A stretch of DNA of 51,959 bases from a virus (Duplodnaviria > Caudoviricetes), in the IMG/VR virus record IMGVR_UViG_3300035670_000293, positions 1-51,959 of that record; one strand, given 5' to 3'. The notes beneath the pieces were generated by a model, which saw nothing but the letters and a program-made list of their open reading frames with translations, ran no database searches and was not told the origin of the DNA. Position numbers and translations under genes: made by a program. Every line of letters begins with the position of its first letter. Position 1 is the first letter of the stretch. This document shows positions 807 to 36,898 of this stretch, piece after piece.

Positions 807-939
807 TCGCATCCGTCCCTGGTTCGTACTCAAACATCACACAAATCCGCGATGGGCACGCCCTGCCGCCGATCTGGCACCAGAGCAATCCATCCGTGGC
901 TTGAAAGGCATAGCGGCAGCTTCGGCATGTGAATTTCAC
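799..939 (-). CDS. small Cys-rich hypothetical protein (46 aa)
   Basis: Manual: VKFTCRSCRYAF...WCQ...CPSRICVMFEYEPGTD. Overlaps the stop of dnaB and the start of the next gene, suggesting translational coupling. Confidence 0.5.
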   Translation of the reverse strand: MKFTCRSCRYAFQATDGLLWCQIGGRACPSRICVMFEYEPGTDANG

Positions 940-4263: not shown

Positions 4264-4426
4264 GCCACACCCCGCTTGCGCGCTCCATGCGCTCGATCTG
4301 CCTTGGCGAACGTGTTCTGCAAAGCTCCGCAAAGGCCTTGTAATTCGCTTCGCACGGGTGGCGCAAAAAGCGTTTGCGGGCACGCTTCAGGCGCAGTTCA
4401 TGCAGAAGGTCGCGCAGGGTGTTCAT
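4256..4426 (-). CDS. hypothetical basic protein (56 aa)
   Basis: Manual: MNTLRDLLHELRLKRARKRFLRHP...RSPRQIERMERASG. ATGA coupling to the antirepressor gene. Confidence 0.55.
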   Translation of the reverse strand: MNTLRDLLHELRLKRARKRFLRHPCEANYKAFAELCRTRSPRQIERMERASGVWRV

Positions 4427-5157
4427 GCGGCCTTCCCTTCTTCGATCATCTCAGCCAGCTTGGCCAATCCCTTAGCCGTCACTCGCGGCTGCGTGTCAGT
4501 CCATTCGCTGCCATCAGGGCGCATTCCTGTGGTGGTTTTATGCTCCATCAAGCCTTGGCGAATTCTGTTCTGATGCGCCAGCCAACCAGCACCCATTGGG
4601 CGGCGGTACGTCCATCCAGACTCATGCAGATAGCCAAACAGCCACTTCGGGCCGACCTGAAGCGTCTTGGCTGCGTCTGTGATGCACAGTGAACCATCGC
4701 TGGCCGTGGCAATACGGTCCAGTGCAGCAACCTTGGGCTGCATCGCCTCGTTTGCGGCCTGCAAGGCAATGACTTTTTCAGAGTATGTAAGCAAGGCCTG
4801 ACGCAGCGCATTCGGGTCAGAGAGCATCTGCATTGGGTCTTTTGCACGACGCTCGCACTCCAGAAAATACTGACGCGCTTCCTTGCCCTTATCGTTGCGC
4901 TCGACCATGGACAGTTCTTTCGCCATGTCTAGGCTGATGTAGTAGTCGATCTTCTGCTTTGCGCCAGACGGAAGCTGCTCCATAAATTTATGGACAAGGT
5001 AATCCACGCCCTCGACAAAGCCATACTGCTCGATCCGGCCTTTGATCCAGGTCGAAAAGTCCTGCTTACTCTCCAGAAACGCATGCAGATCGCGTGCATT
5101 GACCGTCTGAACAGTCACACCATTGAAGGTGTTGCTTGAAACTGAAATGATGTCCAT
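4423..5157 (-). CDS. antirepressor (AntA/AntB N-terminal domain + KilAC domain)
   Basis: VNARDLHAFLESKQDFSTWIKGRIEQYGF...SLDMAKELSMVERNDKGKEARQYF; C-terminal PKVAALDRIA...ITDAAK...VTAKGLAKL. Confidence 0.92.
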   Translation of the reverse strand: MDIISVSSNTFNGVTVQTVNARDLHAFLESKQDFSTWIKGRIEQYGFVEGVDYLVHKFMEQLPSGAKQKIDYYISLDMAKELSMVERNDKGKEARQYFLECERRAKDPMQMLSDPNALRQALLTYSEKVIALQAANEAMQPKVAALDRIATASDGSLCITDAAKTLQVGPKWLFGYLHESGWTYRRPMGAGWLAHQNRIRQGLMEHKTTTGMRPDGSEWTDTQPRVTAKGLAKLAEMIEEGKAA

Positions 5158-6692: not shown

Positions 6693-6903
6693 TGTTACGG
6701 CCCTCCCTCAGCACACCCCAATCAATGTCTGGCCTCAGTTCTTCGCAACGAACAGCGCCAGCCGTCATCCTTTCGATTGACGGACATCTCTCAGCAGGAA
6801 CTCCACGGGCACGCCAATTCACGACGTGCTGCGGAGTTACTCCAAGCGCCTTGGCAAGCAATGTGATGCCGCCAACATGTTTGATTGCAGCTTCTATGGT
6901 CAT
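6679..6903 (-). CDS. cro: Cro/YdaS-family repressor
   Basis: AIKHVGGITLLAKALGVTPQHVVNW...VPAERCPSIE...VRCEELRPDIDW; divergent from cI. Confidence 0.88.
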   Translation of the reverse strand: MTIEAAIKHVGGITLLAKALGVTPQHVVNWRARGVPAERCPSIERMTAGAVRCEELRPDIDWGVLREGRNNADV

Positions 6904-6911
6904 GGCGGAAG

Positions 6912-6940
6912 ATACTACACGCCATGTTTAGTCATGTCAA
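6912..6940 (-). promoter_or_regulatory. PR-like sigma70 promoter
   Basis: TTGACA-17bp-TAGTAT on the minus strand, 8 nt before the cro ATG (near-leaderless). Confidence 0.8.
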
Positions 6941-6986
6941 CATGGCGTTTCTTGCGTCACAAGCTCTCTGGGTAAACAATATGTGT
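6917..6986. promoter_or_regulatory. three OR-like operators
   Basis: ACACGCCATGTTT (6917), CAACATGGCGTTT (6938), AAACAATATGTGT (6974); same pseudo-palindrome as the OL sites. Confidence 0.7.
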
Positions 6987-7628
6987 ATGAATGAGACGCC
7001 GCTTACACGCTTACATGAATGGCTGACAACGAACGGCAAATCATGGGCCGACCTTGCCAGGTTGCTTGGCTACTCTGAGCAGCGGCTAACAAACTGGAAA
7101 AAAAGAGGCGAAATACCTAAAGGCGAGCATCAAGCGATAGCAAACGCAATCGGCGAGTCGATAGACTGGCTGGCCAACGGTAAAGGCAAGTCAGCAAGCG
7201 AAGCAAAAGAACCAGGGGATGAATTTGTGGCCGTGCAACGTGTGAATTTACGGGTGTCAGCCGGTGTCACTGGCTATCGTGTTGAGCACCTGGAAGGCAA
7301 TGGCCAGCCAGTGTTTTTCAGGGCCGACTGGATCGCCAGCAAAGGGTACAAAGCCGAGAAACTTTATGCGCTGAAAGTGAGCGGCGAGAGCATGGAGCCA
7401 GGCCTGTGGGACGGCGACTTGATCGTGATGGACAGCGCGCAGACCGCTCCGATGGACGGAGAAGTGTATGTCGCCAACTATGAGGGTGAGGTTGTAATCA
7501 AACGCTTGGAGCGCAACGCAGGCGAATGGTGGCTAACAAGCGACAATCCGCGATTCAAACCCAAGAAGTGCGATGAACACGCTGAGTTGTTGGGCAGGGT
7601 GATCTACAAGCAGAGCGAGCGGATATGA
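6981..7628 (+). CDS. cI: CI-like repressor (HTH + S24 peptidase)
   Basis: SWADLARLLGYSEQRLTNWKKRG HTH; VSAG cleavage site, GESMEP, VIKRL. Start is 6981 or 6987. Confidence 0.93.
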   Translation: MCMNETPLTRLHEWLTTNGKSWADLARLLGYSEQRLTNWKKRGEIPKGEHQAIANAIGESIDWLANGKGKSASEAKEPGDEFVAVQRVNLRVSAGVTGYRVEHLEGNGQPVFFRADWIASKGYKAEKLYALKVSGESMEPGLWDGDLIVMDSAQTAPMDGEVYVANYEGEVVIKRLERNAGEWWLTSDNPRFKPKKCDEHAELLGRVIYKQSERI

Positions 7629-13453: not shown

Positions 13454-13756
13454 ATGAACATGCAAATTTTTGAAGCCATCGAACAATGGGCAGACGACCG
13501 CAACATCATCAAGGGGTCAGACCCAAAAAGCCAATTCATCAAGCTCATGGAAGAAGTCGGTGAGTTGGCCGAAGGCATCCGGCGTGGTGACTTGGCCGAA
13601 GTGCAAGACGGCATCGGCGATGTTGTTGTCGTCCTGACCATTCTCGCCGCCCAGCACAACCTGTTCATCGGCAACTGCATCGAGTCCGCATACACGGAAA
13701 TCAAAGACCGCAAAGGCGTAATGCGAAACGGCGTTTTTTGTAAAAACGAAACATGA
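13454..13756 (+). CDS. MazG-like nucleotide pyrophosphohydrolase
   Basis: KLMEEVGELAE...DGIGDVVVVL...AYTEIKDRKG. Confidence 0.9.
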   Translation: MNMQIFEAIEQWADDRNIIKGSDPKSQFIKLMEEVGELAEGIRRGDLAEVQDGIGDVVVVLTILAAQHNLFIGNCIESAYTEIKDRKGVMRNGVFCKNET

Positions 13757-14292
13757 TGAAAACTAAGCTTCGCCAACTCTTTGATTACGACGACGGTAAG
13801 TTGATCTGGAAGGTGAAACCCTTTCGCGGCTTTACCAATTCTGGGAAAAGAGCTGGCACAGTCAACAAAGGGTATATGTGGGTAATAACCACTCAGATTT
13901 CTGGCGAACGAAAGGTCTATGGCTTGCACAGGTTGATTTGGATTTGGCATCACGGCGCGATACCAAACGACCGTGTGGTTGACCACATCAATCGAAACCC
14001 ACTTGATAACCGTATAGAAAATCTTCGGTTAGTGACGCGTAGTGAAAACTCTCTAAACGCTTGTGGAAAATCTTCCCGTAGGTCGGCACTCCCTAAAAAT
14101 GTGTACGTTGATTTTAGTTATAAAGACGTACTGAAATACAGGGCACAAGTCACTCTGAAAGGGAATGTGTTCCGAGAGGGAGGTTTCGACAGTGCTGAGG
14201 CAGCTTCTGCGGCAGCTAAGCGTTTGCGAGAAACGCACCATAAGGAGTTTGCCTTTGGCGGCAACCATTCAAGAGTGGAGAACAGAAAATGA
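13753..14292 (+). CDS. HNH-AP2 type free-standing homing endonuclease
   Basis: LHRLIW...VDHINRNPLDNRIENLRLVTRSEN; C-terminal YRAQV...GGFDSAEAASAA; more AT-rich than its neighbours. Confidence 0.9.
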   Translation: MMKTKLRQLFDYDDGKLIWKVKPFRGFTNSGKRAGTVNKGYMWVITTQISGERKVYGLHRLIWIWHHGAIPNDRVVDHINRNPLDNRIENLRLVTRSENSLNACGKSSRRSALPKNVYVDFSYKDVLKYRAQVTLKGNVFREGGFDSAEAASAAAKRLRETHHKEFAFGGNHSRVENRK

Positions 14293-20165: not shown

Positions 20166-21146
20166 GTGGCAACATTTCGGAAGCGGGGAACGTCGTGGTC
20201 GGCGCAGGTTGTGCGGGTGGTGGACGGCAAGCGTACCACGAAGAGCGCGTCATTCAGCACAAAAGCCGAGGCGCAGGCCTGGGCCGCAGGCATTGAGTCT
20301 GACATTGCAAAAGGCAAGTCTGGCAAGACACCAGACAAGACGTTCGGCGATCTGCTATCGCGCTATGGCGATGAGGTTAGCCGCACCAAGCGAGGCGAGA
20401 AGTGGGAGCGCGCCAGGATCGGTCTTGCGCTGCGGGACGCCATTGCATCGGTAAAGCTGGCAGACGTGTCTGCACGCCATGTCGCCGAGTGGCGCGACCG
20501 CAGGCTAAAGGAAGTCAGCCCGGCATCGGTCAGGCGCGAATGGAACCTGCTGTCTGCCGCCTGCACCGTAGCCGTCAACGAATGGCACTGGCTACCGGCA
20601 CACCCAATGAAGACGGTACGCAGGCCAGCGCCACCCAAACCAAGGGACAGACGGCCCACACAGGATGAAATCGACCGGCTGCTACTGGCGTGTGGCGATG
20701 ATCTGACCACGCAGCAGGGCAGGGTAGGGGTTGCCATACTTTTTGCCATAGAAACAGCCATGCGGGCCGGCGAGATTTGCGGGCTGGCCTGGACAGACAT
20801 TCGGCTGGACAAGCGCCATCTTGTCATCAGAGACGGCAAGACCGCCGCCGCCGCCCGCAGTGTGCCGCTCTCTCAAGAGGCTATCGACTTGATCAACAGG
20901 CTGCCAAAAGACTCTGATCACGCATTCGCGCTTACATCGTCCAGCCTGGATGCGCTGTTTCGCAAGGCCAAGGGCAGGGCCATGATCGAGGATTTGCACT
21001 TCCACGACCTGCGACATGAGGCCATCACGCGATTGGCCAGCAAGCTGAACGTGCTTGAACTGGCCCGTATGGTGGGCCACCGCGATCTGCGTATGCTTCA
21101 GGTCTACTACAACGAGTCCGCTGAAGCACTCGCAGCCAAGCTCTAG
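20166..21146 (+). CDS. int: tyrosine recombinase / integrase
   Basis: ETAMRAGEI, K, HFHDLRH, GHRDLRMLQVYY catalytic set. Confidence 0.96.
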   Translation: MATFRKRGTSWSAQVVRVVDGKRTTKSASFSTKAEAQAWAAGIESDIAKGKSGKTPDKTFGDLLSRYGDEVSRTKRGEKWERARIGLALRDAIASVKLADVSARHVAEWRDRRLKEVSPASVRREWNLLSAACTVAVNEWHWLPAHPMKTVRRPAPPKPRDRRPTQDEIDRLLLACGDDLTTQQGRVGVAILFAIETAMRAGEICGLAWTDIRLDKRHLVIRDGKTAAAARSVPLSQEAIDLINRLPKDSDHAFALTSSSLDALFRKAKGRAMIEDLHFHDLRHEAITRLASKLNVLELARMVGHRDLRMLQVYYNESAEALAAKL

Positions 21147-24100
21147 TTTTGTTGCAACGCTTTCAGCGCCTCAACCATCTGCTTGCGATGCTCGCGGTAT
21201 GCGGGCATGCCATCAAGCTCTTGCTGGCGAATGCCGTTCAGACGCTCGGTGAAGTTATCTACCGAATAGAACGCTTCGAGCGCATCGTTGTGAGCACGGT
21301 TGAATGCCTGATATTCCTTCAGCAGTTCCTTCGCGCTATCCACATTGGCTTCAGTCAGTGTGAACTTGTTCAATCCCGCCTCGTCCTGATACTTCTTGGC
21401 GCGCTCGTAGTCGTCCACAAAGGCGTTCAGGTTGGCATAGGCTTCATGTGCCGCGTTCTTTGCATTGCGAGGCATGTGCCGTTCACGGATAAAGTTGCGC
21501 ACAACCGGAATCTCGCTCAACTCTGGCGAAGTGCCTTGCATGGACTTATAAGCGGCAGAACCCGTTCCAGAAATGAACGTGCCAACGCCGCCAGTCAGAT
21601 TGCCAAACATCCACTTGATTACGTCCGGATGGATGTCAATGCCGCCGCGCTGCGTAGCCGTGCCGCCCGTGGCCTCGTTCAGATAGGTTGAAATATCCTC
21701 GTAGACCGTGCCGCGAGTGCTGCGCCACATCTGGGCGCTATCCGGCTTGCCTTCATCAAACTTGTCGTCAGGGTAAATCTTGCGGTCGCCAAATCCAGTA
21801 TTGTTCAGGCCGATCCCGACTGCCCACTTGATTGGCTCGAACGGCATCAATTCAACCATGGCCGTGTTGTAGTCTGGCTCATCGCCAAGCGGGTTGAACG
21901 GCAGGAAGTTGGCCATGAACGAACTGGCCAGCTTGTAAGCCACATCATCAGCCGATGCCCCGTCCTGCATTTCCTTCGCGTAGCGGCCAATGTCAGAGAA
22001 GAATCCATAGCCATACGGTATCGCCACTTTCGCCACAAGGTCATTCATCTTGATCAGGAAGTTGCGCTGCTTCTCGTATTCCTGAACCTCTTCCTTGTCC
22101 TCGTCATCGCCGCCCCACTGGCTGGCGGCAAGATAGCCAAGCATGGCAAGCCCAAAGGCCGCAGACCATGCCTGGTACTTGTGCCTGCCGCCAAACAAAA
22201 CTTGGCCCGTTGTGGTGGCGCCCTGAATGGCCGGGTTGGCAAACAGATAAGCCGCCTTGATGTTTTGCCCCTGCTCGCCCTGCTTGTTGAAGTTGACGGT
22301 GATTCGCTTGGCCCAGTTGATAGCCTCGTTCTCAGAGTAGCCTTCTTCTATCAGCGTGGTGAAGGCGGCAATCCGCATGGCATTCTCAGCGCCTGCATTC
22401 ACCCAGCGAACAATCGCAAACGCAGCAGACACCCCTTTCTCAAGCATCACCTTCGACATCTTGGCTGGATTGCCTTTGAACAACCTGAAACCAATGGCAT
22501 GATCGTAAGCAGATTGGGCGTCTTTGCGCAGGCGCTCCATGTCAGACAGCATGCCGACACCGGTAGAGCCGCCGTTCCTGCGATACCTATCCATGATCGG
22601 CGATGAATGACCAGCCACCTCAAAAGCCATCGCACGGTAGAAGCTGACCGGGTACTTTGTAAGCATCTTGGCAGCAATGACCGTTCCGTATTCACCCATC
22701 GTATTGATCAACCCGGTTGACAGGTCGCGCTCGATGTTCACGATGATGAAGGCCGGGTTCAGGCCCGTGTACATCAACGAGAGCGTATTGTTCAGATCAC
22801 GGAACTGCCGCATCACAAACCCAAGCTCGGCCATCTCCAGATTGTTGTACGCCTGGGCAAGCAGCGGATCATTCAACTGAATCCGCACACGCTCACCGTT
22901 GATGTAGCCAATCGCCTCATAAGGCTGCGCAATGCTGGACGGAATGTAGCTTACAAAGTCATCACCGTAAGAAGGGTGAATCGTGTAGTCGCTCTTGTTG
23001 TGCTTGTGTAGCGAATGAGCAAGCGACTTGTACGTTTCAGCCTCAGACTGCGTTGCAAACGACTTGATCGGCGCGCCCTTGTAATACACCACATGCGTCG
23101 TCGCACCCTTGCGCAGCACGGCCATCTTCTCAGGCTGATCAACCGTCCATAACTCTTCAAACGGTTGCGCGCCAGCCAGGCGGTAGAGGTGCTGGAAGAT
23201 TTCATTCTTCTCGCTCAGGATGACGGCACGCTCGTACTGGCCGAAGATGTTCTCGATGATCCACTCATCCCGGTAGCCATGGCCCAGCGTGCGCTTAAGC
23301 TCAGGCTTCGCGTTCACGCTCTTACCCTTGCCTGTACCGCGCCAGACGTTGTTATCCGGGCCTCCGCGCAGGGGAACATATTTCTGGAACGCCTTGCTCC
23401 AAGCGTTTACACGGTCAGTCGAAACGATCCCGGCAGCGTGCAGCATCTCCTTGGCCTGGCTCGATATGTCGCGGAATTCGCCGGCCAGCTTCACCATCTC
23501 GCCATAGTTTGGCGCCGCCTTGAATGCAGCAATGATCTGCGCAGCCTCATCATCCGTCATGCCGCCCGCACCATTGGGCCTGCCCTGCGAATCCACCAAG
23601 GCCGGGTTGATCTTGAACAAATGAGCATTGCGCTCTGGCGCGTGTTCCGCATGCAAGAACGCCGCCACATCTTCCATGGTAAAGCCAGCCTTATGCACGC
23701 GCTCAACCAGCGGCGTCATGACAAAACGGCGGAAGTCGCTTATGCGAGCCGCCATTCGGCCATGCGAACGAAGCTCTGCTTCATACACATTCCGGTCGTC
23801 AAAGCGAATATCCGCACCAACGGTCTTGTTCAGATAGTCCTGAACAACCTGGAAGCGCAGGAAACTATCCTGCACCACGCGCCGGCTGGCTTGCACGGCA
23901 GTCTCTTCCGGGATGTCCAGGGTAGGAACATGGCGCCCCCTAGAAGCAGAAACCCCGCCGGGTGGCGGGGTCTGTTTGCTGAAGAGTGGCATACCAGATT
24001 GTCGTATCTTCTCCCGCATGGAGTCTGGGATGGTAAAGCCGGGTTGCGGCTCGCTGATGTCAGCCACGGTCAGGTCAGTCTCGACCTCAAGGAACTTGGT

Positions 24101-27100
24101 CGGATTCTTGACGTTGTGGATCTGCTTCGATTCAACCTTCGTCCCAGGCGACAGCTTACGCAGCACCTCGTTGGCCACGCTCGGCACGATGGAATCGTAG
24201 AACTTACGCATCCCTTCGCCGCCAACGCGAAGATCAAGGCCGGAGTAGTCCCCGCCATTCTCTGAAATGGCGCGTTCTGCCAAGTCTTTGCCGACGATTT
24301 CCGCGAGTTCAGATTCGTTGCGAGCATCTTTCGACAGAACGCTCGCCCCGTCTTTCCATGCAGTGACGACCCACACCCCACCCGTCGGGGTGACGGCCAC
24401 TCGGTCAACCTGCTTACTAAGGTCGTACAGATCAGCATTCTGCTGCCCGGTGCCGAACACGATGCCATCCGCGCCCACGTCGATGGCGTGCAGGATGGCC
24501 CGCTTGATGCCCAGGGCAACCCATGCGCGGGTGTCGGTGACGAAGGGGGCGGCAGACGTTGCTGCGCCAAGGAACTCGCCTTTGTCATTTTTGCCGATGC
24601 GGAAAACATGCGCCTTTGCGATAGCATCCTCTTTCGTAACGGCCTCAACCAACTTCCCGATGTACGGTGCCGCATCCTCGCTGCGCGATTTCGGGTAAAC
24701 GTACCACTTGCTGACGATTCCTTTTCCAGCATATACGGCATCAAGTTTGCTTGGCGTTGCTTTCTCGCCAAACCCCTTATCCCGCCCCTCCTGACCCCAG
24801 TCACTCTGAATCTCACCGACCCGCACATACCGCTTGCCGTCCGCGCCAGTAACTTCATCGAGGCGAACGTGAACGAGACGGTTCACGTCATCCGCACGGC
24901 TACCATATCGGTGGGCGCTGGGCACGGTGTAGTCCGAGACTCCCTTCTGCTTCGCCACGGCATCAGGCAACGTCACCAGAATCTCGCGGTAGGTGCCCTC
25001 GATGCCGCCTTTGAATGATTGGTCCCAGTAGCCGGAGAACTTGGTGTCATCCGCGTCACGCTTCGCAACTCGGTTGTTTTCACGAATATGCGAATTGAAG
25101 TACCGCGCACCAAATTCCTTTGCCTCTTGCTCAGATGCAATTCTTTCCGCACTAACGTATGTGTTTCTACCTTCTGGCGACTCCAAATACCACTGCGCCC
25201 CGGCTCTCTCTACAAGAACGTCATCCGCCGAAATCTCTTCTTGCATCTCCGCAGTGCCAGCACCCTTCACCACATCCTGAACCGTCACCCCGTTGCCGTT
25301 CAGGTAGTCCAGCACCTCGGCCTTGGTGACCTTCTCTTTTCCGCGCAGGTTGAGGTAGTCGGTGATGCCACTCCACTGAATCTCATCGTCCTTCAGGCCA
25401 AGCTTGGCTTTGTTCGATTGCAGCCAGAGCAAGACCTGTTTTGCAGGCTGGCCAAAGATTCTATCCGGCGCAGACTGAAAGGCCTTGATAAGCGGTGAGA
25501 AGAAGCGGTCGCGGTCAGACATGAAATCACCGTCCCGCTTCGCCTGCCCCATCCTGTCCGGCGCCGTCTTCAACGCCTGTCCAGCCATCCACGCCACGTC
25601 TTCCGGCGTCAGGTTGTTTGCCCACTTCACCAACTTCAAGCGTTCAGCGCCCTTCAGCTTGCCAGCCATGTTGCGGATAGCGTTCTTCAGCCAGGCCTGG
25701 AACCGCTGCACAATGCTCAGTTCAGGGTGATGCTCAACAAGGTAGCCAAGCGTCTCTTCGCTGATCAAGTGTGCCGGCGTGTCATCCGGTACAGCCTTGC
25801 GGGCGGCAACCGCTGCCGTGTCGCCACGCGCCACCATGCGATCCACTTCGCCCAGAATTGCCTTGAACTCGCTATCAGAACGGTTCAGTTGCAGTGCATG
25901 CACACCAATCTCATGCCGCAGCAGGCCGGGCACGCTATCGGCGTTCTGGTCGATGTTGTCAGCCACCAGATAGACCTTGCCGTTCTTCACAAAGGCGAGG
26001 ATGCGGCTTCCGTCTGCGGAGTAGCGGATGTCCGGGTTGGTCGGCGAGAACGTGCCCTGGTTGCCGGTGGCGCCTTCGATTGGTCTTGTTCGGCCAAGCC
26101 CCATGTGACTAAGATCAACTCTGGAATTCAACACTCCATCAACAGCTGATTTTGCCTGTGTCGGGTCAAACCAAGCGTAGACGGTGGTTGCTTTCCCGCG
26201 CCCTTTTGGCGGGTTGTTGTAGTAATCAACGCTGTTCCTGATGATGATTCCGTCATATTGCCCGATCTGCGCAGCTTCAACATGGTGTTCCGTGTCACGC
26301 CAATGAGCGCCTTTTGCATCAATAATCATTGGATTTGATGCGCGGATGTACAAAGGGATAGTTTGCGGTTCTGCGTTCTGATAATCGGAAGCTCTGTAGT
26401 CTAGCGCGTAGCTATCAGCAACAGAGCGATCAGCGGCGGCGAACCAGACATTGCCACGGCTCCTGGCCTTAAACCCCTCTGCAAATATGCCGCGAACATC
26501 AGGCGCACCGTGATACACCACCAGCGGCCTACCTTCTGCATCCACAACGCGACTATCACCAAACCACCGCCAGAAGTTGCGGATGCCTTCCTCAGTCGGG
26601 TGGATAGGCTGACCGTTGCTGTTGGTCGTGGGGCGGTCGATGCCGTCTACGTTGATGGTGTCTGGCAGGGCGGCCTTGCTGAACGCCTCGCCACCAGTAA
26701 GAATTCCATCCACCTGACCGCTGGTGATGATCTCAAAGTTCCCCGTGCCAATCAGCCGGTCGGCAAATCCATTGCCTTCAGCCTGGTCAATCGCGGATTT
26801 CAGTGTGGAAACGGTGTGTGGTGTGGTGGATGACGCTGCTGACCTAAGCGATAGTGCAACATCAGGAAGGCCGCGAATGTGAGATTTTGTTACAACCGTT
26901 CTGCCCTTGCCTTCTGCTACTTGAACGGCCATACTTACATCGACCACCGTGTTCAGCGTAGCGAATTGACCGTTACGGGCCTGCTCGGTGGTTTTTTCGT
27001 TGGTGTCGTCATAGTAGTGCAGCAATCCGTTTTCTGACCATCGCTTTACAGATGTTTCGTTCAACGGATGAACGGTCATTACATATCCCTGCTTGCCTTT

Positions 27101-30100
27101 TGGTTCGATAGCAACAACAGCACCAGGAACTACAATCCGATAGCTACCTGAATTCATACCTCCTTCGCTGGAGAAGATAGCAATAGGATCGGCAAGCAGG
27201 TTAGGAAGATTGATAACAACATCGTTAGACACAGTTTCACCGTGATACGAGGCTGCGTGGGTGTCTGTCGCCTTTGATGCGATACTGCTTCCAGAACCCC
27301 AAATACCATCGTCAAGCCTCTTGAATGGCTTGCTTCCATCCTTTGCTATGACATTTCTAATGACGGCAGGAACATCCATTACCTTGAAGGATGACGATCC
27401 TGCAATTGACCGGATACGATTAACATCCGATGTCATACCAACCAAAGCTTTTTTAATGGAAGACAAATATCCGTGATGCCCAGACGGAGAGAATCTATTG
27501 TCACTCCCTGATCGGCTATACATCACACCTTCATCTTCACGCATCGCGTTCAGCTTCTCGCCGTTGCGTTCAAGCAGGGCGACACGATCAAGCGTGGGTT
27601 GGTCCCAGATCACAAAATTCGAGGTTCCACCTTCCATCTTCTCAGATACGTTCGCACCCGACGACGCCCACTCCTTAACCTTTCCAAGCACATACTCCCT
27701 GTCAGCCTTCTTTACGCTTCCGTCTGCTCGCAACTCAATTTCAATACGCGAAATACGGTCTCCCCACAGTTTCAGGTAGTGTGCTGCAACCGCGTCTTTG
27801 CCGGAGACTATCTCACCATTTACGGCCAACTTTGTTGCTCGGCTATTTCCGTCCAGGTAGCGGTTGCCGACGATGCCGATACTGGCTAGGTATTCGCTGG
27901 CGGCTTTGTCGCTACCGAGTTCCGCAGATAAAGCGAAATACATGTCTTTTGCTGTTGCGTTCTGTCCCAAACCGCGTAAAATTGGGACATGCTTAATAGA
28001 TATATTTGCCCTGTTTGCGGGGTCGAGTTCTTCCGTGACTATCGCGGGTCCAGAGCCAGCGCTATCCACCATTGCAGCCGAGCCTGTCAATTCATCGGCC
28101 AGCGAAAAGATAGCACCCTTGATGCTGCTGGCTACAAAATCATTTTCCTTAACGGCAAGAAGGTTAGAGAGCATCGCTTTGTCATGGAACAGCATCTCGG
28201 GCGTAATCTTGCGCCTGGAGAGGAAGTCCATCACATCAACGGGGATAAGGCCGACAATAGAATCGAGAATCTTGTTGTTCTTACTCGCGTTGCTCACGCT
28301 GTCCACCACCGCAGATCGTGTATTGACATCGAGCGAGCCAAATCCCTTCGATATAACGGATTCAGTTTTCAGCGTATCGCGGACGAACTCAATGTCTCGC
28401 GCAACGCTCTCTGGCACGCCTTTAAGGTCCGTGGTTTGCTTGATACCAAGCGCGGCAAGTACAGCGGGTGACTGCTTCTTGATTGGCGCGTCAAAATCAA
28501 GCAGGTAGGGCAGAACGTCGTCGGGGATGTCGAGTTGGTAGAGGGAGCCTTTTTGAATCATGGATTCTGCTTGCTTCTTGGTGCTAAACGGGCCGCCCGC
28601 AAGCGCATTATTCGCATCAATCAAGAACCAATTTGATGTGTTGTTGCCATAACCCTTCTTGACCGTAACTCCCGCACGGTTTGTGAGTGTTTTTTGATAA
28701 CCTGCACCAACACCCTGTGCCTGGGCGCTATAAAACCCCCACCCGTAAGCCTGCGCACCTTCCCCCGTGCCAATCATGTCCAGCCGTGGCCGACCATTCG
28801 GGAAGCCTGGCTCGGGTGCCCAGACGTGCGGCGTACCGTGCCATACCGGCTGCGCCACATACGACGCCCCACGACGCTCTGATTTGGTCTCCGGTAATTC
28901 ACCGCGCTTGAGTAGGCCGCTATCAAAAGCCGATGCACCATCGTCCATCGAAACCACGTCCAGGAACAGGCCGGAAGCAATCAGGCTGGGGTGTGCGTCC
29001 AGGCTACCCGGCACAGCGGCCAGCAGGTCGGTTGAGCCCGTCTCGCGGGCCATCCGGCGCAGGTTGGCCAGCATGCGTAGTTTCTCGCGCCCGGTCATGT
29101 CCGCAGCCGGCACGGGCATGTCCATGATGAACGATACCGTGCCATCGGCATTGCGGCCCACAATGGCCATGTAACCCTTCTCGTTCTGAAGCTGCTTGGC
29201 AATGCGGGCGGTTTCGTCCGACTTCACCATGTACTCGCCCAGCAGTTTGTGCGGCACCTCGCTGTTGTCGCGCAGGTTGATGCTGTTCAGCCACTCCGCC
29301 TCAATCGTCTCCGGGTCCATCGTGCCGTCACCGTTGGGCAGCAACTGCGTGAACTCGTTGTGGTCGATGATGACGTGGCCCTTGAATCCTGGCACGGCAT
29401 TCATCAGGGATTGCGTCAGGTCAATATCCGCCACCGACTCCCGCGAACTACCCGACGGGTGGTTGTGCATGATCCAGTAGCCAGACGCACCGTGCTGGCG
29501 CAAGCCCGTCTCAATCTGCGAAGGCAGATCGTTCGGCACATACACCGTGGCCGGCAGGCGGGACGAGAACCCGGATTGCGCCATGATCCTGCCATCGTCA
29601 CCCACATAGAAGACGCGGAACGTCTCAAAGCGCGGATCACGGTAAACCTGGCCCAGAATCGCCAGGTCAGAAGATGACTCTACTTTTTGTCCGACGATGG
29701 AGAATCCGCCAGCATCGCGGAATTCGCTGGAGATACGACTCCCAAGTAGGGAGCCGTCCGTTCCCGCAGCACGAATGCGCCCGAAGATGCGTCTCTCGGC
29801 AGCGGCGAGTGCGACACGACCGACTTCCGTTTGCCCTTCGGTGGTGTCGGGACGAGTTTCAAGTGTGGCGTAGGGGTCTTGGTTTCCATGTGTGTAGTCT
29901 GCCACAGGCTCTTGCACGGATGAAGCGGCGCCGCGATCTTCCTCGTACTTCGGAAGCCCGTTCTCGTCATTCACGTCCAGATACGGCACGTCACGCACAC
30001 CGTTTTCATCGGATACCGTAACAAACATGCCTTCCTTGGTATTGCGGTGACCTTCAACAATGACAGGCTTGCCACCAACAAACACCTCTGTATTGATTGG

Positions 30101-33100
30101 CGCGCCATTACGCAGCCAGGCCGGCGCAGGAATCGGGTTCACCTGAATGTCCTGCTCAAGATCAGCCAGCATCTTGCGCTTCTTCGCAAGGTCAGCTTCG
30201 CGTGCAAACGGGGCGTTTGAAGCCTCTTCCATGCGCGGAATGCTTCCTTCCTTATCGGCAATGCCCGCCGTCAGATCGTCAATGCGCTTCTTGAGTCCGT
30301 ACAGCGTGGCACGGGCACTGGCAACAGATGGGCTGCCCATGCCATAGTCCAGTTCGCCATCAATGTAATACTCCATGTCGCGCCATGCGACTGACTTGAC
30401 CGCCTTGATGCTGAAGCCCCAGATGTTGGCAATCTCTTTGGGGTCTGCGCCAACTTCAATGCCATTCACCTCGCGCTGCATCTGCGCGTTGGCCGCATCA
30501 ATATCGGTGAAGGACTTCTTGCCGATCTTCACGACCAGATCATTTTTGGCCACTGCGCGGAACTTGTCGTTATCCCGTGCAATGCGCTCGATCATCGTGC
30601 GGTCGCTTTCGATCTGGCGCTTCAGGCTGCCAATGCGCTGCACTGCGTCGTAAATGCCCTGCGCGTGCATGCGCTCCTTGTTTTCCAGCTTATCAACATC
30701 TGCCTTCAGCTTGTTGATCATCAACAGGCGCGGATCGCCTGCGGCATCCGACAGCGTAGAACCAAAATCGCCTTCTTCATCCAGGCTGACTGCATCCCCT
30801 TCAATCACACGCACAGAGTCGTCCGCCTGCATGAAGGCCTTGATAAAGCGAGACTTGATTGAAAGCACCTGCCAGCGGCGTCCATCAATGCGTTCCGTGA
30901 TGTAGCGGTACTCAAGCACGGTATTCCACTTGTTGCCCTGCCGGTGGCCGCGACCATTCCGCTGTTCAAGCTCACCCGGCATCCAGGGGGCGTCCATGTG
31001 GTGCATGGCGCGCAGGTTCTCCTGCATGTTGACGCCCACGCCAAGCGTGTCGGTCTGACCAATCACCACACGAATCTTGGACGCATTCATGGCGTCGGCA
31101 ATGTCCTTGCGCTTATCCTTGCTGACGCCGCCATCCACAATGGCAATCTCATGTGCCGGAATGCCTTGCGCCTCCAGCTTGGCCATGATGTCCTTGACCA
31201 GATTGAAGCGCGGCTTCTTGGTGACAACATCCTTGCCGGTATGGTGATCTTTCTTGCGGCTCACCGACTCATCGGTATAGCCCTTGTCTACAAAAATGAC
31301 CTGGGTAGACTGCGGATGCTCGTTGTAATGCTGCATCACATTCTTCACCACGCGGTTCACCTTGTTATTCGGTGTGTCGCTGGCTTCAATGTCAAAGAGT
31401 CGAATATCAAGACCCGCGTTCGAGGCGGCAGTTTCAACCAATACCGGGCTACGGTTGTCGCCCATAAGCATGATTTCCCTGCGCTCTTTCTTGCTTGCGG
31501 CCTTGAATGATGCGGCCCGCCGTTTCAGTTCCTCAAACACAGAAGACTGCTCCGGCGCCATTTCAGACACATCGTTGATGACCTTCTTGTATGGCCTGCC
31601 CATCGGGGCTTCTGTGCGACCATTGACCAGTTCGCTCTTTTCAGTGTCAGTCAGATCATCGCTGGCCAGCGTCTTGCCGGTTGCCGTTTCGCGTGGTTTG
31701 AATTCAGGCATGTCATCGGCAAACACAATGTCCATGTACTGACCAACCATGTGGCGAAGCTCTGGCACATTCACGAAAGCAGCCAGGCGTGTCACCGGCT
31801 CGTATTCGCCTGCCGCCGTCAGTTCAACATCGCTGGTTGAGTCGGCAAAGGTATTGAACCAGGCATCCCATTCACGCACACCGTCACGCGCCATCTGGTC
31901 ATCCATGACATACCGCATCATGTTGTAGATTTCATTGATGGTGTTGGTAATCGGCGTGCCTGTGAACAAATGAACACCCGTGCCACCATTCAGGCGCTTG
32001 ACGTAATCCGTCAGGAACATGAGGCTGATGGATTGGTTGCTGGGCTGCTTGTTCAAGCCCTTCATGCTCATGCGTGTAGCCAAGGGTGGCTTCTTGAATT
32101 CATGGGCCTCATCGACAATGATCATGTCAACGCCCATGTCCTCAAACGACACCGCACCCTCTTTCGAGGACTTCAACGCCATTTCCTTGATCTTCTTGAT
32201 GATCTGATTGCGCTGATGAACAAGCTGCTTGGCAGTCACGCTACGCAATTTCTTGATTGCGTCCTCGTTGTCCATGTCCTCAATGCTCAGGCCAACACCG
32301 TCTTCATTCGCGGCCTCAAGCGCCTCCTGCTCAAGCGCGTGAATCTGGTCGCGTGAGATTTCCATCAAGGTTTCTTCCTTGAGGGTTAGCCGGTTGATAA
32401 GCGAGTGCGGCATGACAATCAAATCCCAGTCGTCATGCGCAACCTGTCGCAGCGTCACGGCAATGCGCGCAGGCGCCAGATTGTCGATATAAAGCACTTT
32501 CGCGCCCGGATATTGCTCGTTGATCTCACGGGCTACACTGGCACTGTTGGCGTTGTGTGCGAGCAAGAGCGGTTTCTTGGCAATGCCATAACGGCGCGAC
32601 TCAATCGCCAGCGCGCCCATGGTGTACGTCTTGCCGGTGCCAACCTCATGCGCATTGATGCCACGGCGATTCACAAGGCCGCGATAGACGGCATTGGCCT
32701 GATGGCTGCGCATGCTGAAAGGCGTGTCGCCACGCTGCAATGCCATCCCTTCAAAACCAAGGAACGATCCATCAAACTTTGCATCTGCAATGGCGTTCAT
32801 GATCTCGTTGTAGGTGCGCTCAAGTTCTATCTTGCGCACTGGGTCTTGCCACACCCAGTCAGAAAACGCCTCACGAATCTTGTTGGCCTTCTCGTTGGCC
32901 TCTGCGCTGGCAGTTTCATCGACCTGCCTGTTGCCGTCTGCGTCCCGGTACCAAATCTTTACAGCCACGTTGCCAATGGCATGCGTCAAGAGGCTGTCAA
33001 AACGGATGGACGGATGCCCCCATGATGTCGTGGCTTCAGGCCGGCGATTCAGCGTGGGGTCATAGAACCGCACCTTCCAGCGGTTGACGATGAAACGAAC

Positions 33101-36100
33101 GTCAATGTCATTGCTTTCCTTGCCAAGCAAATACCCCACGAACTGGCGGTAATACGACGGCTGAATCCAGGTCGCACCCATCTTGGCTTCGATGTTGTAG
33201 TACGGCGTATCCTTCGGAACCACCCCTTTCAGCGCCTCAATGTTGCGCGCCATGTCCACGCCTTCTTCTGCGGCAGCCTCGGCTTCGCGCAGTTTGCGCC
33301 GGACATTGCCTGATAGGTACACGTCCGATACCTCAAACGTGCCCTCCGGCGTCATAAATAGCGCGCCTGCCTCAACCAGTTCCTTCGCGGCTTGGTTTTC
33401 GGTTACGCCTGCAAGCTCGGCAATGCGTGCCATATCAATTCGCGTAGACTCATTGCGCGCCAGCACCAGCGCATCCCGCACGCTCGGGTTTTCCAGCTTC
33501 TTCTTGGCACGAATAGTAGGCCGGCGCAAAATGGCCGCAGGGTTGCCGTTGTTGTCCTCAAGTGCCGCCAAAGAAGCATAGAACGGGTCTTCAACCTTCT
33601 TGATAATGGACAGGCCAAAACTCTCACGAACCGGCCCGTACTTGCCAACAAAGTCATCGTAGGCCGATTTCAGCGCCTTGCGCTTATCCTCAAGTCCTTC
33701 ACTGCCATCGCGCTCGGCGTCAATCAGGTCTCCATACTTGCGGCGCATCTCTACCAAACGGCGAATCTGGTCTTCGCGTTCGGCTGTCTTGTTGGCGTCC
33801 TTGATCTTGTATTTCGTAACCTCATTCAGCGGAGCAAGATACTCGCCCTGAACCTGGAACAACTCGCCGTCGCGATCAATGATGGACTGCTGGCGGTCGC
33901 TGGTGTTGTTGGTGACATACTGAATTGTCTTGGCGCCAGTCGTTGCCGGCATGAAGATGCCAGATGGCAACAGGCCTGGCAGGGCCGCCATGCGCGCTTC
34001 CAGATCGGCTGGGCGCTGCACAATCATGGAGGGTCGCCCATAGGTTGAGCCATGCCCAAAATCAAGCGTGCCAAGCACATACCCAGGCAGCTTGGCAAAG
34101 TATTCATTGACCTTGACCTTCTGACCTGAAGGCGTACCCACATCCGTTGTGTTCAGCCACCCGGAATTGCGCAAATCAGCATTCGGCGTGTCGCGCTTCT
34201 TCAAGATGATGATGTCCGTTACAACAGACGTGCCTGCGTATTTCTCGAACGCACCAGACGGCAAGCGGAATGCGGCCACCAGATCAGCCTTCTCCGCCAA
34301 TGCGGCGCGTGTAAGCGTGCCTTGCTTATCCATGGTGCCGGCAGATGTAATGCCCACAACCAAGCCGCCCGGTCGGGTTTGATCCAACGCCTTCAGGAAG
34401 AAGAAGTCATGCAAGGATGGCGAGAGCTTCAGGTAACGGCGGTCTGCCGGCCCATCCTTCGCAAACGGCCAGTTGCCAATAACAAGATCGTAAAACCCGT
34501 CTGCCGTTCTGCTGTCCTGATACGGTTTGATCTGGATGTTTGCCTCGGGGTACAGCAATTTCGCCATGCCGCCCGTGGTTGTTTCCATCTCGATACCGGT
34601 CAACTGGCTACTTGCCATCAGGTCACGCGGCATCAAGCCAAAGAAGTTGCCCACCCCCATTGAAGGCTCAAGCACGCGCCCACCGGTAAAGCCAAGTTGG
34701 CGCACCATGTCCCACATGGTGGATACGGTAATCGGGTCTGTATAGTGGGCATTGATGATAGAGGCCTGCGCGCTCTCCCAGCCTTCCTTTCCAAGATGCT
34801 CACGCAGCCAGGCCGATTCATTCTGCCAGCCGTCCTTCGGGCGTGGCGCGTCATACGTTCCCTGGAACAACTCCTGACCAAACGAACCCCAGCCAATGTA
34901 ACCGGCCATGGCATCCAGTTCGTCTTGTGTCGGCTGCCGCCCTTCTGACGTGATGGATTGGTACGCCTCAATTGCTTTTTTGTTGCGAGCAAAACGCACC
35001 TTTGGCGTTCCGCCAATCAACTGCTCCGGGTCTTTGATGTGATAGTTGGCCCGAAGCGGGTTTACATCGGGTACTTGGTCTCCCACGGGTACGGACGCTC
35101 TATCGGCTGTTCCGTCTCGTCCTCCGGCTCCAGCATCAGCCATTCCATCTCGGCCTGCTCCCTGGCGTCCGTCGGCGGCATCCCCGCCCGCTCGTACCTG
35201 TCCATCGCCTCCCACATTGCCGCCTGTACCACCAGCGCCAAGTCGTCCTGAATCCCCTGCGCCGTCAGCCTCGCCCACATCTTGGGCCGAAGCAGGCGCC
35301 ACGCCGTCTTGATCCGCTTGTCCAGAACGAGGTTGATTATCACGTCCTCGTTGTCCCGGATCGCCTGCGCCTTGCTCTTGATCTGACTCGGGTTGTCTTG
35401 CATTTGATTCTCCTGTTTCTTTCAGAATAGCATCCACATCCGCCGCTTCAACCTCTGCCGCAGCCGACAGGCCATCAAAATCTGCGGCCCGTGGGTCGTA
35501 TTTCACGCCCATATACCACGACTTCAAATAGGGCTTCACTACGTCGCCAAGGTCTTCAATCATCGCCTTGGCGTAGGCGGCAAACGTGCGAGCGCCGGCT
35601 TCTATATGGTAGCCCGCCAGGGTAATGCCGGCCTGCATGATCTCCGGGTCAATGCCGGCGTTCAACTGGCCCAGCTTCTTCTTCAGCAGGGCGCGTGCAG
35701 CCGCAGCGGCGTCTTCGGTAAATACCTTGTTGGCAGAAGGCTTGGGCGCCTCTATCAGTTCCTGCTGTCCGTTCGCTATCGCCTGGTCAACTGGCCGGTT
35801 ACTACCCACCAGATTGAAGTCATCCAGCATGGCATCTGCCGCTTCCTTGTTGCGGGCGTCGCGTTCACGCTTCGCACGCGCATCGGCCTCGGCGCGAATC
35901 TGCTCAGGCGTTTGTCCCTCTAGCGCGAAGCCTTGATCTTGCGCTCCAGGCTGGCCATCTGCTGCTTCAGCTTGACCAATTCCATTACCTTGGCCCTGCG
36001 CTCCGGGGGCAGCTTGTCTAGCTCCGCCTTCAGCGCCTTCAGCCTGTCCATCTGCTCCGTCTTCAGCGACATCAAAATCCCCTTTGTCATAACCCATCAC

Positions 36101-36898
36101 CATCGCCGCTTCATCCAGCGACAATCCATTGTAATCCTGCCGCTCATATACCGCGTCCAGTTCGGCATTGATCTTGTTGGCAAGCTCAACATCGGCGCGT
36201 TCAGCCTCGGCTTCGCGGGCTTCAACCTCTCCACGCAGTTTGTCGCGCTGCGCCTCAAGTTGCTTGATTCCTGCACGCTTGCCAGGCGTTCCGCCCATTG
36301 CCTCAATTTCTTCCCGCAGAGCGTCTTTCTGCCTGTCCGCTTCCTCGCGCATCATGGTGGCTTGCTGACCAGCCAGGTTCAGCACCGGGCGACCGGTAAT
36401 GGCTTCCTGGATCATTTCAACGAGATGGGAGGCGCCGTCGTCCGTTTCATCGTTATTGATCAAAAACCCATCATCCCGTAGCTCGTTTGCCAGATCGTCC
36501 AGCCCCTTGCCATTGCTGGAAAACAAACCGGGAATCGGCGAAACAGATTCGCCCGTCACGTCACGGATGTACTTTGTATTGATGCCGCCCAGTTGCTTGA
36601 TGCGCTGAATCAGGTTGTTCGATGCTTTTTTCTTGGGGCCAGAAGCAACAACGCCGGCAGGAGCCGGCGTCTGTTCGGGTGTTTGCGCAGGTCGTAGCTT
36701 CCCGCCTGCCTTCTCAATCTGCGACACAATATCGTTGCGTTCACCCGTCAGGCGCTCAAGGTAATCCGAAACCGCACGGGTGGCCGCTGTGCGCGCATCG
36801 TCACCGTCGTTCTTGTTCTCTTCGGTCGATCCGCGAAGGATGGCGGCTTCATGTTCGGAAATACCCAGTTTCTTCAAGCAGCTTGAAAGCGTACCCAT
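21143..36898 (-). CDS. giant (5251 aa) DarB-like polyvalent virion protein: N6-adenine MTase, SNF2 helicase, JAB/RadC, ART-like domains, MuF-C-like, zincin-like motif, LPD38-like C-terminus
   Basis: [10 protein letters not shown] and IGNWPF (~34.5 kb); [23 protein letters not shown] (32.6-30.9 kb); HNHPSG..S..D (~29.45 kb); [17 protein letters not shown] (~28.8 kb); [24 protein letters not shown] (~26.5 kb); HEIGVH (~25.9 kb). Confidence 0.9.
26907..27000 (+). ncRNA. putative embedded antisense sRNA unit
   Basis: TTGCCT-17bp-CATACT, then ACCACCG...CGGTGGT hairpin followed by a T-run. Confidence 0.5.
27955..27989 (+). promoter_or_regulatory. promoter/operator of the nested HNH gene
   Basis: TTGCGT-16bp-TAAAAT, 6 nt before the ATG; perfect inverted repeat TGTCCCAA/TTGGGACA flanking the -10. 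Confidence 0.6.
27989..28471 (+). CDS. HNH endonuclease with N-terminal Zn finger and C-terminal HTH, nested antisense in the giant ORF
   Basis: CPVCG..CSRAC; GYK...[35 protein letters not shown]...HAVHH; [20 protein letters not shown]. Confidence 0.9.
35062..35403 (-). CDS. nested out-of-frame hypothetical protein (113 aa)
   Basis: AGGAG-7nt-ATG; upstream TTGAAG-16bp-(TGc)TATTCT; globular composition while the host frame is G/A/D/R low-complexity. Confidence 0.7.
   Translation of the reverse strand: MQDNPSQIKSKAQAIRDNEDVIINLVLDKRIKTAWRLLRPKMWARLTAQGIQDDLALVVQAAMWEAMDRYERAGMPPTDAREQAEMEWLMLEPEDETEQPIERPYPWETKYPM
35920..36072 (-). CDS. nested out-of-frame helical peptide (50 aa)
   Basis: AAGGGG RBS; [50 protein letters not shown]. 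Confidence 0.5.
   Translation of the reverse strand: MSLKTEQMDRLKALKAELDKLPPERRAKVMELVKLKQQMASLERKIKASR

Follow-up and report, generated by a model that had tools for sequence, protein, structure and literature searches.

An HNH endonuclease gene nested antisense and in codon register within a giant polyvalent protein gene of a temperate phage

An HNH endonuclease gene hidden in the coding DNA of another gene has been described for ShiLan, an unspliced, stop-free insertion in actinobacteriophage DNA methylases that is read in frame 3 of the same strand (Arsenault, Gosselin and Gogarten 2025, PMC11855218); according to its main text, the evidence is computational and the host is predicted to keep the extra peptide. 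Here we analyze an HNH gene that lies on the opposite strand of its host, inside a 5251-amino-acid polyvalent protein gene of a tailed phage (Caudoviricetes; IMG/VR record IMGVR_UViG_3300035670_000293, positions 1 to 51,959, a stretch of 51,959 nucleotides hereafter called the window). Judging from sequence comparisons, we consider it likely that the intact gene encodes a homing endonuclease with its own antisense promoter, and that the host protein is read straight through it without splicing. The peptide that the host frame reads from the reverse of the HNH gene is called the mirror peptide.

As described in its main text, ShiLan resembles the present element in being a hidden, out-of-frame HNH with a zinc finger and no added stop, in which no intron or intein was detected and whose distribution is patchy and homing-like. 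It differs in lying on the same strand, in its methylase hosts, in having two zinc fingers, no helix-turn-helix (HTH) and no ribosome binding site (RBS), and in a host peptide that is poorly predicted; the present element has the opposite strand, promoter or RBS signals, a zinc finger-HNH-HTH architecture, giant polyvalent virion genes as hosts, at least eight motif-defined sites and measurable selection on the host peptide. On JN020143.1 we confirmed the same-strand frame of ShiLan and found that its codon-aligned antisense frame holds a stop. The original prediction for our locus, made from the letters of the window alone, had proposed a new strategy; the antisense, clade-wide nesting is upheld, but an unspliced hidden HNH had already been published as ShiLan (PMC11855218). 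Inteins that carry an antisense homing endonuclease reading frame (LAGLIDADG, VSR-like; 10.1101/2025.01.02.630785) share with our locus an endonuclease antisense under an open host frame; in the inteins as that source presents them, however, the mirror peptide falls in a self-splicing domain and is excised, whereas here there is no splicing domain and the nuclease is an HNH. The T4-type genes mobE in Aeh1 nrdA and mobA in gene 39/60 are intronless HNH genes inserted, like the present one, in coding DNA, with the target of the carrier protected (PMC2988022, 10.1101/2022.08.31.505936); as outlined there, they split the host into two polypeptides or need ribosomal bypass, whereas here one unbroken open reading frame (ORF) remains.

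Polyvalent proteins are multi-domain proteins encoded beside virion genes; packaging and injection are predicted for them (Iyer et al. 2017, PMC5512222). In the main text of that article 'antisense', 'homing' and 'intein' are missing and 'HNH' appears a single time, in an unrelated place, and 'antisense', 'reverse' and 'polyvalent' are absent from the main text of PMC11855218. Our literature search returned no report of an antisense HNH in polyvalent proteins, which is a weak test, as the same search also missed ShiLan and supplementary domain tables could name the mirror peptide otherwise. Four aspects of the present case were not found in print: its antisense arrangement in the absence of splicing, its hosts of the polyvalent type, the multiplicity of its sites and the selection acting on the mirror peptide.

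The HNH gene (27989..28471, + strand) encodes 160 amino acids, which comprise a zinc finger, an HNH core and a C-terminal HTH. Pfam HNH_3 matches it with an E-value of 2.7e-13 (49.7 bits against a cut-off of 24.8), and the four-Cys zinc finger is formed by C7, C10, C29 and C33 (CxxC..CxxxC, residues 7-33; 28007..28087, +), which confirms the full HNH gene with zinc finger of the original prediction. The core residues H62 R63, H81 H82, N90, N94 and H103 are found at 28172..28300 (+), within the HNH_3 match to residues 62-104. Also predicted was the C-terminal HTH (28349..28417, +), for which the model gives three helices at 114-147 and HTH_11 a weak, sub-threshold match (E 0.003); we infer that this region is a DNA-binding domain. 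The best solved match to the structure model is I-HmuI (1u3e; E 7e-3, probability 0.98), with a TM-score of only 0.35 and 20% identity. I-HmuI is an intron-encoded enzyme in which the HNH is followed by a helical DNA-binding part.

In the host, the HNH gene corresponds to codons 2810-2970 of the 5251-amino-acid ORF (36898-21143, -) in exact codon-to-codon antisense register, and this ORF has zero internal stops, so the stop-free overlap noticed originally is borne out and proves to be codon-aligned. An open antisense frame alone means little, because such lengths are common in the giant gene, whose antisense frame has 55 stops in 5252 codons and at least 12 gaps of over 170 codons. That abundance is what a chance shadow ORF would draw on, an explanation to which, like that of an assembly artefact, we give virtually no credence. 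None of the 22 other + strand shadow ORFs within the giant gene matches Pfam, as against the E-value of 2.7e-13 here; dozens of divergent relatives exist, a contig of 799 bases from a second sample holds identical DNA, and another study yielded a variant. Both explanations are refuted by the relatives, by the nesting among the best hits and by the open host frames described next.

HNH-frame protein queries, together with the loci of one other search, gave 100 distinct relatives, of which 11 lie inside antisense ORFs of at least 869 amino acids; these are 11 of the 14 best matches, and none of the other 86 is so placed. A query with the host-frame peptide matched 244 protein clusters (50% identity clusters), and among the 150 listed of these, 119 are at least 1000 amino acids long and 12 are shorter than 400. 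Further host-frame scans, and a DNA pattern biased towards nested members, brought the set to 260 distinct HNH genes. The host frame is open in 44 of the 45 full-length relatives with DNA (37 with at least 400 amino acids, 7 open over the whole 675-base locus, and 1, L005, closed), as compared with 7 of 215 more distant HNHs (5 with at least 400 amino acids and 2 open over the whole locus). Polyvalent-type domains (ART-PolyVal, LPD, InPase, RadC, PBECR or ddrB-ParB) were detected in 23 of the 38 host frames scanned. Two nested HNH genes occupy different sites of one host ORF in each of L181, L250 and L312, and each of five stored proteins has two mirror domains; L232 was excluded as a GC-rich shadow. 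The search with both frames that had been proposed at the outset therefore shows that antisense nesting recurs (11 of the 14 best HNH hits, 244 host-frame clusters). No full-length member was present among 50,697 phage records, and the mirror peptide had no match in the phages or plasmids searched.

Two relatives deserve separate mention. L005 (4809-5513, -), the only non-nested full-length relative, lies between separate InPase and RadC genes, and its mirror frame is a 234-amino-acid ORF that starts just after the InPase stop, has lost the Pro described below and contains Cys and Trp; from its sequence, it may be either a bridge ORF or a released copy. P0272, a close HNH-frame relative, comes from an Acinetobacter record.

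The conservation pattern indicates that the HNH frame is a gene under purifying selection. N90, N94 and H103 are invariant in all 46 dereplicated nested members, as are H62, R63, H81 and H82, which the DNA pattern imposes for part of the set, and each of the four zinc-finger Cys is invariant in the 43 nested members having the column; the HNH of L317, another carrier, is without the zinc finger. In all seven related pairs the HNH third positions vary more than the first, the HNH frame being the more conserved of the two. A low-depth contig of a related strain from another study shows six differences in the core, and four of the five listed are synonymous in the HNH; in its flanks 21 of 26 classified differences are synonymous in the host, a count that leaves out 9 clustered rows and has 38 others outside the classified set. 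Degenerate HNH frames in all relatives, combined with a lack of transcription, had been named as an outcome that would refute the original proposal; no decayed frame occurs among the nested loci examined and the catalytic residues stand at 46/46, with the limit that HNH-based searches would under-sample decayed copies.

This strong purifying selection and lack of decay among the loci examined also speak for a different explanation, in which the nuclease is real and expressed but domesticated, cutting competing phage DNA or regulating through its HTH, and is spread by the shuffling of polyvalent domains. Homing genes often decay after fixation. Polyvalent genes are moreover mosaic, and up to two copies per gene were seen. 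We nevertheless regard domestication as unlikely: the lineages are site-specific and have lost the adjacent Trp, the presence of the element is patchy (8 filled against 87 empty alleles at one junction, see below), and the lack of decayed copies is weakened by their under-sampling.

Selection was also detected in the host frame. In counts of codons by their backward reading, in which the columns of the DNA pattern were omitted and 59 GC-matched free-standing HNHs served as control, codons reading Cys backwards make up 0 of 165 in nested cores versus 34 of 196 in free HNHs; the corresponding values are 7/166 versus 63/215 for His, 1/41 versus 22/90 for Trp and 13/329 versus 36/324 for Tyr. The control codons GGA, CAA and CGA/AGA show no depletion in nested cores, and GTG is depleted, so avoidance of codons ending in A in general was ruled out as an explanation for the bias. 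Cys accounts for 0.02% of residues in the inserts, 0.03% in the host flanks and 1.99% behind free HNHs, and the giant protein of the window has one Cys in 5251 residues. Nine codons have a stop, Cys, Trp, Tyr or (for Val codons) His as their backward reading, and the HNH gene of the window uses not one of them. Dual-coding constraint is strongest at the Gly85 codon, GGG (28241..28243, +), which the host frame reads as Pro. All 11 loci that HNH-frame queries brought up have NGG here, hence host Pro, and two of them have Arg in the HNH, while a third base G at this position occurs in 19 of 95 free-standing HNHs; Pro is present at that column in 152 of 159 domains, a set found through the host frame. 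At fourfold third positions, identity is 39-44% within nested pairs and 27-28% within free pairs, the pairs being non-independent. On this codon evidence, the host-frame peptide is under selection beyond the avoidance of stops, which argues for its translation within the host protein and does not imply a function. The proposed comparison of selection thus finds constraint in both frames, in one as third-position excess and in the other as backward-codon depletion, and the idea that the host carries a neutral passenger peptide is contradicted by the codon depletion (Cys 0/165 versus 34/196) and the fourfold identity.

The mirror peptide is probably a compact helical insert. AlphaFold, given 17 host-frame peptides, returned an all-helical model with a pLDDT of 80-88 over residues 21-100 and a pTM of 0.58; it was run without a control fold, and covariation may leak into it from the HNH frame. 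Fold searches with the mirror peptide found generic helical bundles only (best Z 6.4), the Atlas gave no match of at least 0.9, and no Pfam or PHROG family matched. It could be supposed that this peptide is by now a functional domain whose benefit to the virion protein helps to keep the element, a view that the model and the column constraints (Pro in 152 of 159, and Gly 29 in the host column under HNH residue 119) would favor. We judge it very unlikely, given that just one column is invariant in the 17 sequences, that the HNH frame is the more conserved in 7/7 pairs, that most hosts lack the insert, and that the model may borrow the covariation of the HNH frame and resembles generic bundles.

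Another alternative is removal of the segment by an unrecognized intron, ribosomal bypass or a protein-splicing element. Inteins with antisense endonuclease ORFs do exist, as presented in 10.1101/2025.01.02.630785, and some inserts fall within folded domains, such as the InPase split in L211. Rfam, however, gave no intron family match in the window or in nine loci, although divergent phage introns can escape Rfam, and the element has almost no DNA outside the HNH ORF, leaving no room for a ribozyme or splicing domain. As noted originally, the frame is unbroken and intein residues are absent at the ends, where conserved Cys/Ser/Thr or His-Asn was not found, and Pfam placed no intein on the nested segment, though the same scan detected the intein of the window's DnaB. 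The mirror model is all-helical, and the insert obeys the Cys exclusion of the host (0.02% against 0.03% in the flanks), which would be needless under excision at the RNA level. Removal of the segment is accordingly a highly improbable alternative. The DnaB helicase gene (936-3425, -) carries an intein with a LAGLIDADG domain.

The host gene (21143..36898, -) encodes helicase, RadC/JAB, MuF_C, ART-PolyVal and LPD38 domains beside virion structural genes; in its giant size, its many domains, among them ART-PolyVal/LPD/InPase-type ones, and its neighborhood it has the features of a polyvalent protein. In the host frame the element covers about codons 2810-2981 (27956..28471, -), that is, the antisense peptide and the promoter codons, with ends at about 27956 and 28471 that are uncertain by about 9 codons on the side of the HNH stop. 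They are approximate because no close empty allele of this phage was found. The N-terminal half of the interrupted domain (28472..28845, -) aligns with the empty alleles L052-L061, and the C-terminal half (27540..27955, -) continues in the same frame. This domain had been labeled ART-like; that it has empty alleles is established, but the label is unconfirmed, since four empty alleles gave no Pfam match and hhalign against ART-PolyVal a probability of 1.8, with a weak match (E 3e-4) in the corresponding part of P0007.

Empty alleles, whose search had been suggested, were indeed found. This junction has 87 of them, with spacers of 39-129 amino acids (median 66), and 8 filled alleles of 179-241 amino acids, 3 long unexplained rows having been set aside. 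As these lengths imply, the element replaced a variable segment, and the clean insertion into a tolerant loop that had been envisaged does not hold. The motif adjoining the HNH stop (28472..28504, -) is a candidate cleavage-resistant target site; it has Phe at 28493-28495 where empty alleles carry Trp. That Trp is present in 81 of 87 empty alleles but has gone from 7 of 8 filled ones, the rows being related. No informative direct repeat, as expected of a target-site duplication, was seen at the element ends. Run X1 contains a low-depth contig in which the host halves (27877-28500 region) are joined without the element; it probably represents the empty allele of a different phage from that sample. 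Elsewhere inserts adjoin other conserved motifs, fall in linkers or split InPase (L211), and in L062 (4920-5411) and P0065 the element occupies the usual place of the ART-PolyVal core and appears to have replaced this whole domain.

On a tree of 159 mirror peptides, 8 motif-class labels need 13 changes, compared with a mean of 28.5 after shuffling and 0 of 200 shuffles as low; the test counts 44 assigned peptides, leaving aside 103 unassigned and 12 short rows. For the flank tree (79 rows; 129 columns assembled from motif pieces), grouping six filled alleles of one junction as a clade is rejected (p-AU 0.004). Site-faithful inserts on scattered flanks fit homing, with insert lineages that would be mostly site-specific and make occasional jumps to new motifs.

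Upstream of the HNH gene, the promoter originally read as TTGCGT-16-TAAAAT stands in part. A -10-like box (27977..27982, +) lies 6 nucleotides before the ATG, as in a leaderless promoter, but the -35-like hexamer (27955..27960, +) has only 3 of 6 matches and a consensus promoter scan called nothing upstream of the gene. Starts could be assigned from the first CxxC in 34 of 40 nested loci; of these 34, 19 show a Shine-Dalgarno core, and in a further 10 a -10 box lies 5-8 nucleotides upstream. An RBS or a leaderless -10 box thus accompanies 29 of 34 nested starts, compared with 8.8% of 2306 same-strand control ATGs, and the leaderless arrangement alone 10 of 34 compared with 3.8%. Six loci with unrelated host sites (L065, L155, L156, L181, L237 and L310) share an RBS and spacer motif upstream of the HNH start, which suggests a sub-lineage carrying its own leader.

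The palindrome reported at the promoter is present as an 8-bp inverted repeat (27963-27970/27982-27989, within 27963..27989) that surrounds the -10 box and whose last base is the A of the ATG. It is not a trait of the family: palindromes of at least 7 bp occur near 2 of 34 starts, no enrichment over the control of 3.5%, and the RNA hairpin has a fold z of -1.5. Autorepression by the HTH at this palindrome, and with it a family-wide operator, is therefore unsupported, and by analogy with I-HmuI the HTH more likely serves target binding.

Under the homing interpretation, the nuclease would be made from an antisense promoter of its own and, when phages infect a cell together or a prophage meets an incoming phage, would nick or cut a conserved motif of the empty allele beside the variable segment. 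Repair would copy the cassette in place of that segment and alter the target, with loss of the Trp codon, so that the filled allele would be protected. The host protein would be translated through the mirror peptide, with read-through instead of splicing. Because it has no splicing part, the element must avoid the three codons that read stop backwards and offer a tolerable mirror peptide, and selection would tune the synonymous positions of the HNH until the peptide is Cys-free like its host and poor in Trp, His and Tyr.

Several points weigh against this interpretation. Many nested loci were found with the DNA pattern that enriches nesting, and on a tree of the 69-column HNH core the nested genes need 17 changes, which is compatible with one origin as well as with several. 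The seven Trp-less filled alleles are probably one insert lineage and not independent events, and the ends of the element are approximate. The flank trees were quick ones built on short alignments, and flanks could also be scattered without homing by the recombination that polyvalent genes undergo in any case. Finally, the -35 of the HNH gene is weak and was rejected by the scan.

Elsewhere in the window, an integrase (20166-21146, +), whose stop overlaps the stop of the giant gene, a CI-type repressor (6885-7628, +) and an antirepressor (4423-5157, -) indicate a temperate phage. A second HNH_3 gene (13753-14292, +) is an ordinary free-standing one.

For annotation, these loci are a blind spot: gene prediction retains the giant ORF at the expense of the nuclease, whose mirror peptide would then be taken for a conserved domain of unknown nature. 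With 46 divergent members with DNA and 244 clusters, they provide a rare natural series of genes that overlap completely, codon on codon, and whose older frame is known, so that the shaping of a new peptide from the antisense strand can be measured. A bolder and doubtful possibility, which we put forward tentatively, is that the mirror of a selfish nuclease gene may be a folded helical domain born from the antisense strand and present in hundreds of giant virion proteins, and that splicing-free homing cassettes may retarget from motif to motif and drive the shuffling of polyvalent domains. With this element, the unspliced, hidden-HNH strategy reaches the opposite strand, a broad class of phage cargo proteins and numerous independent sites.
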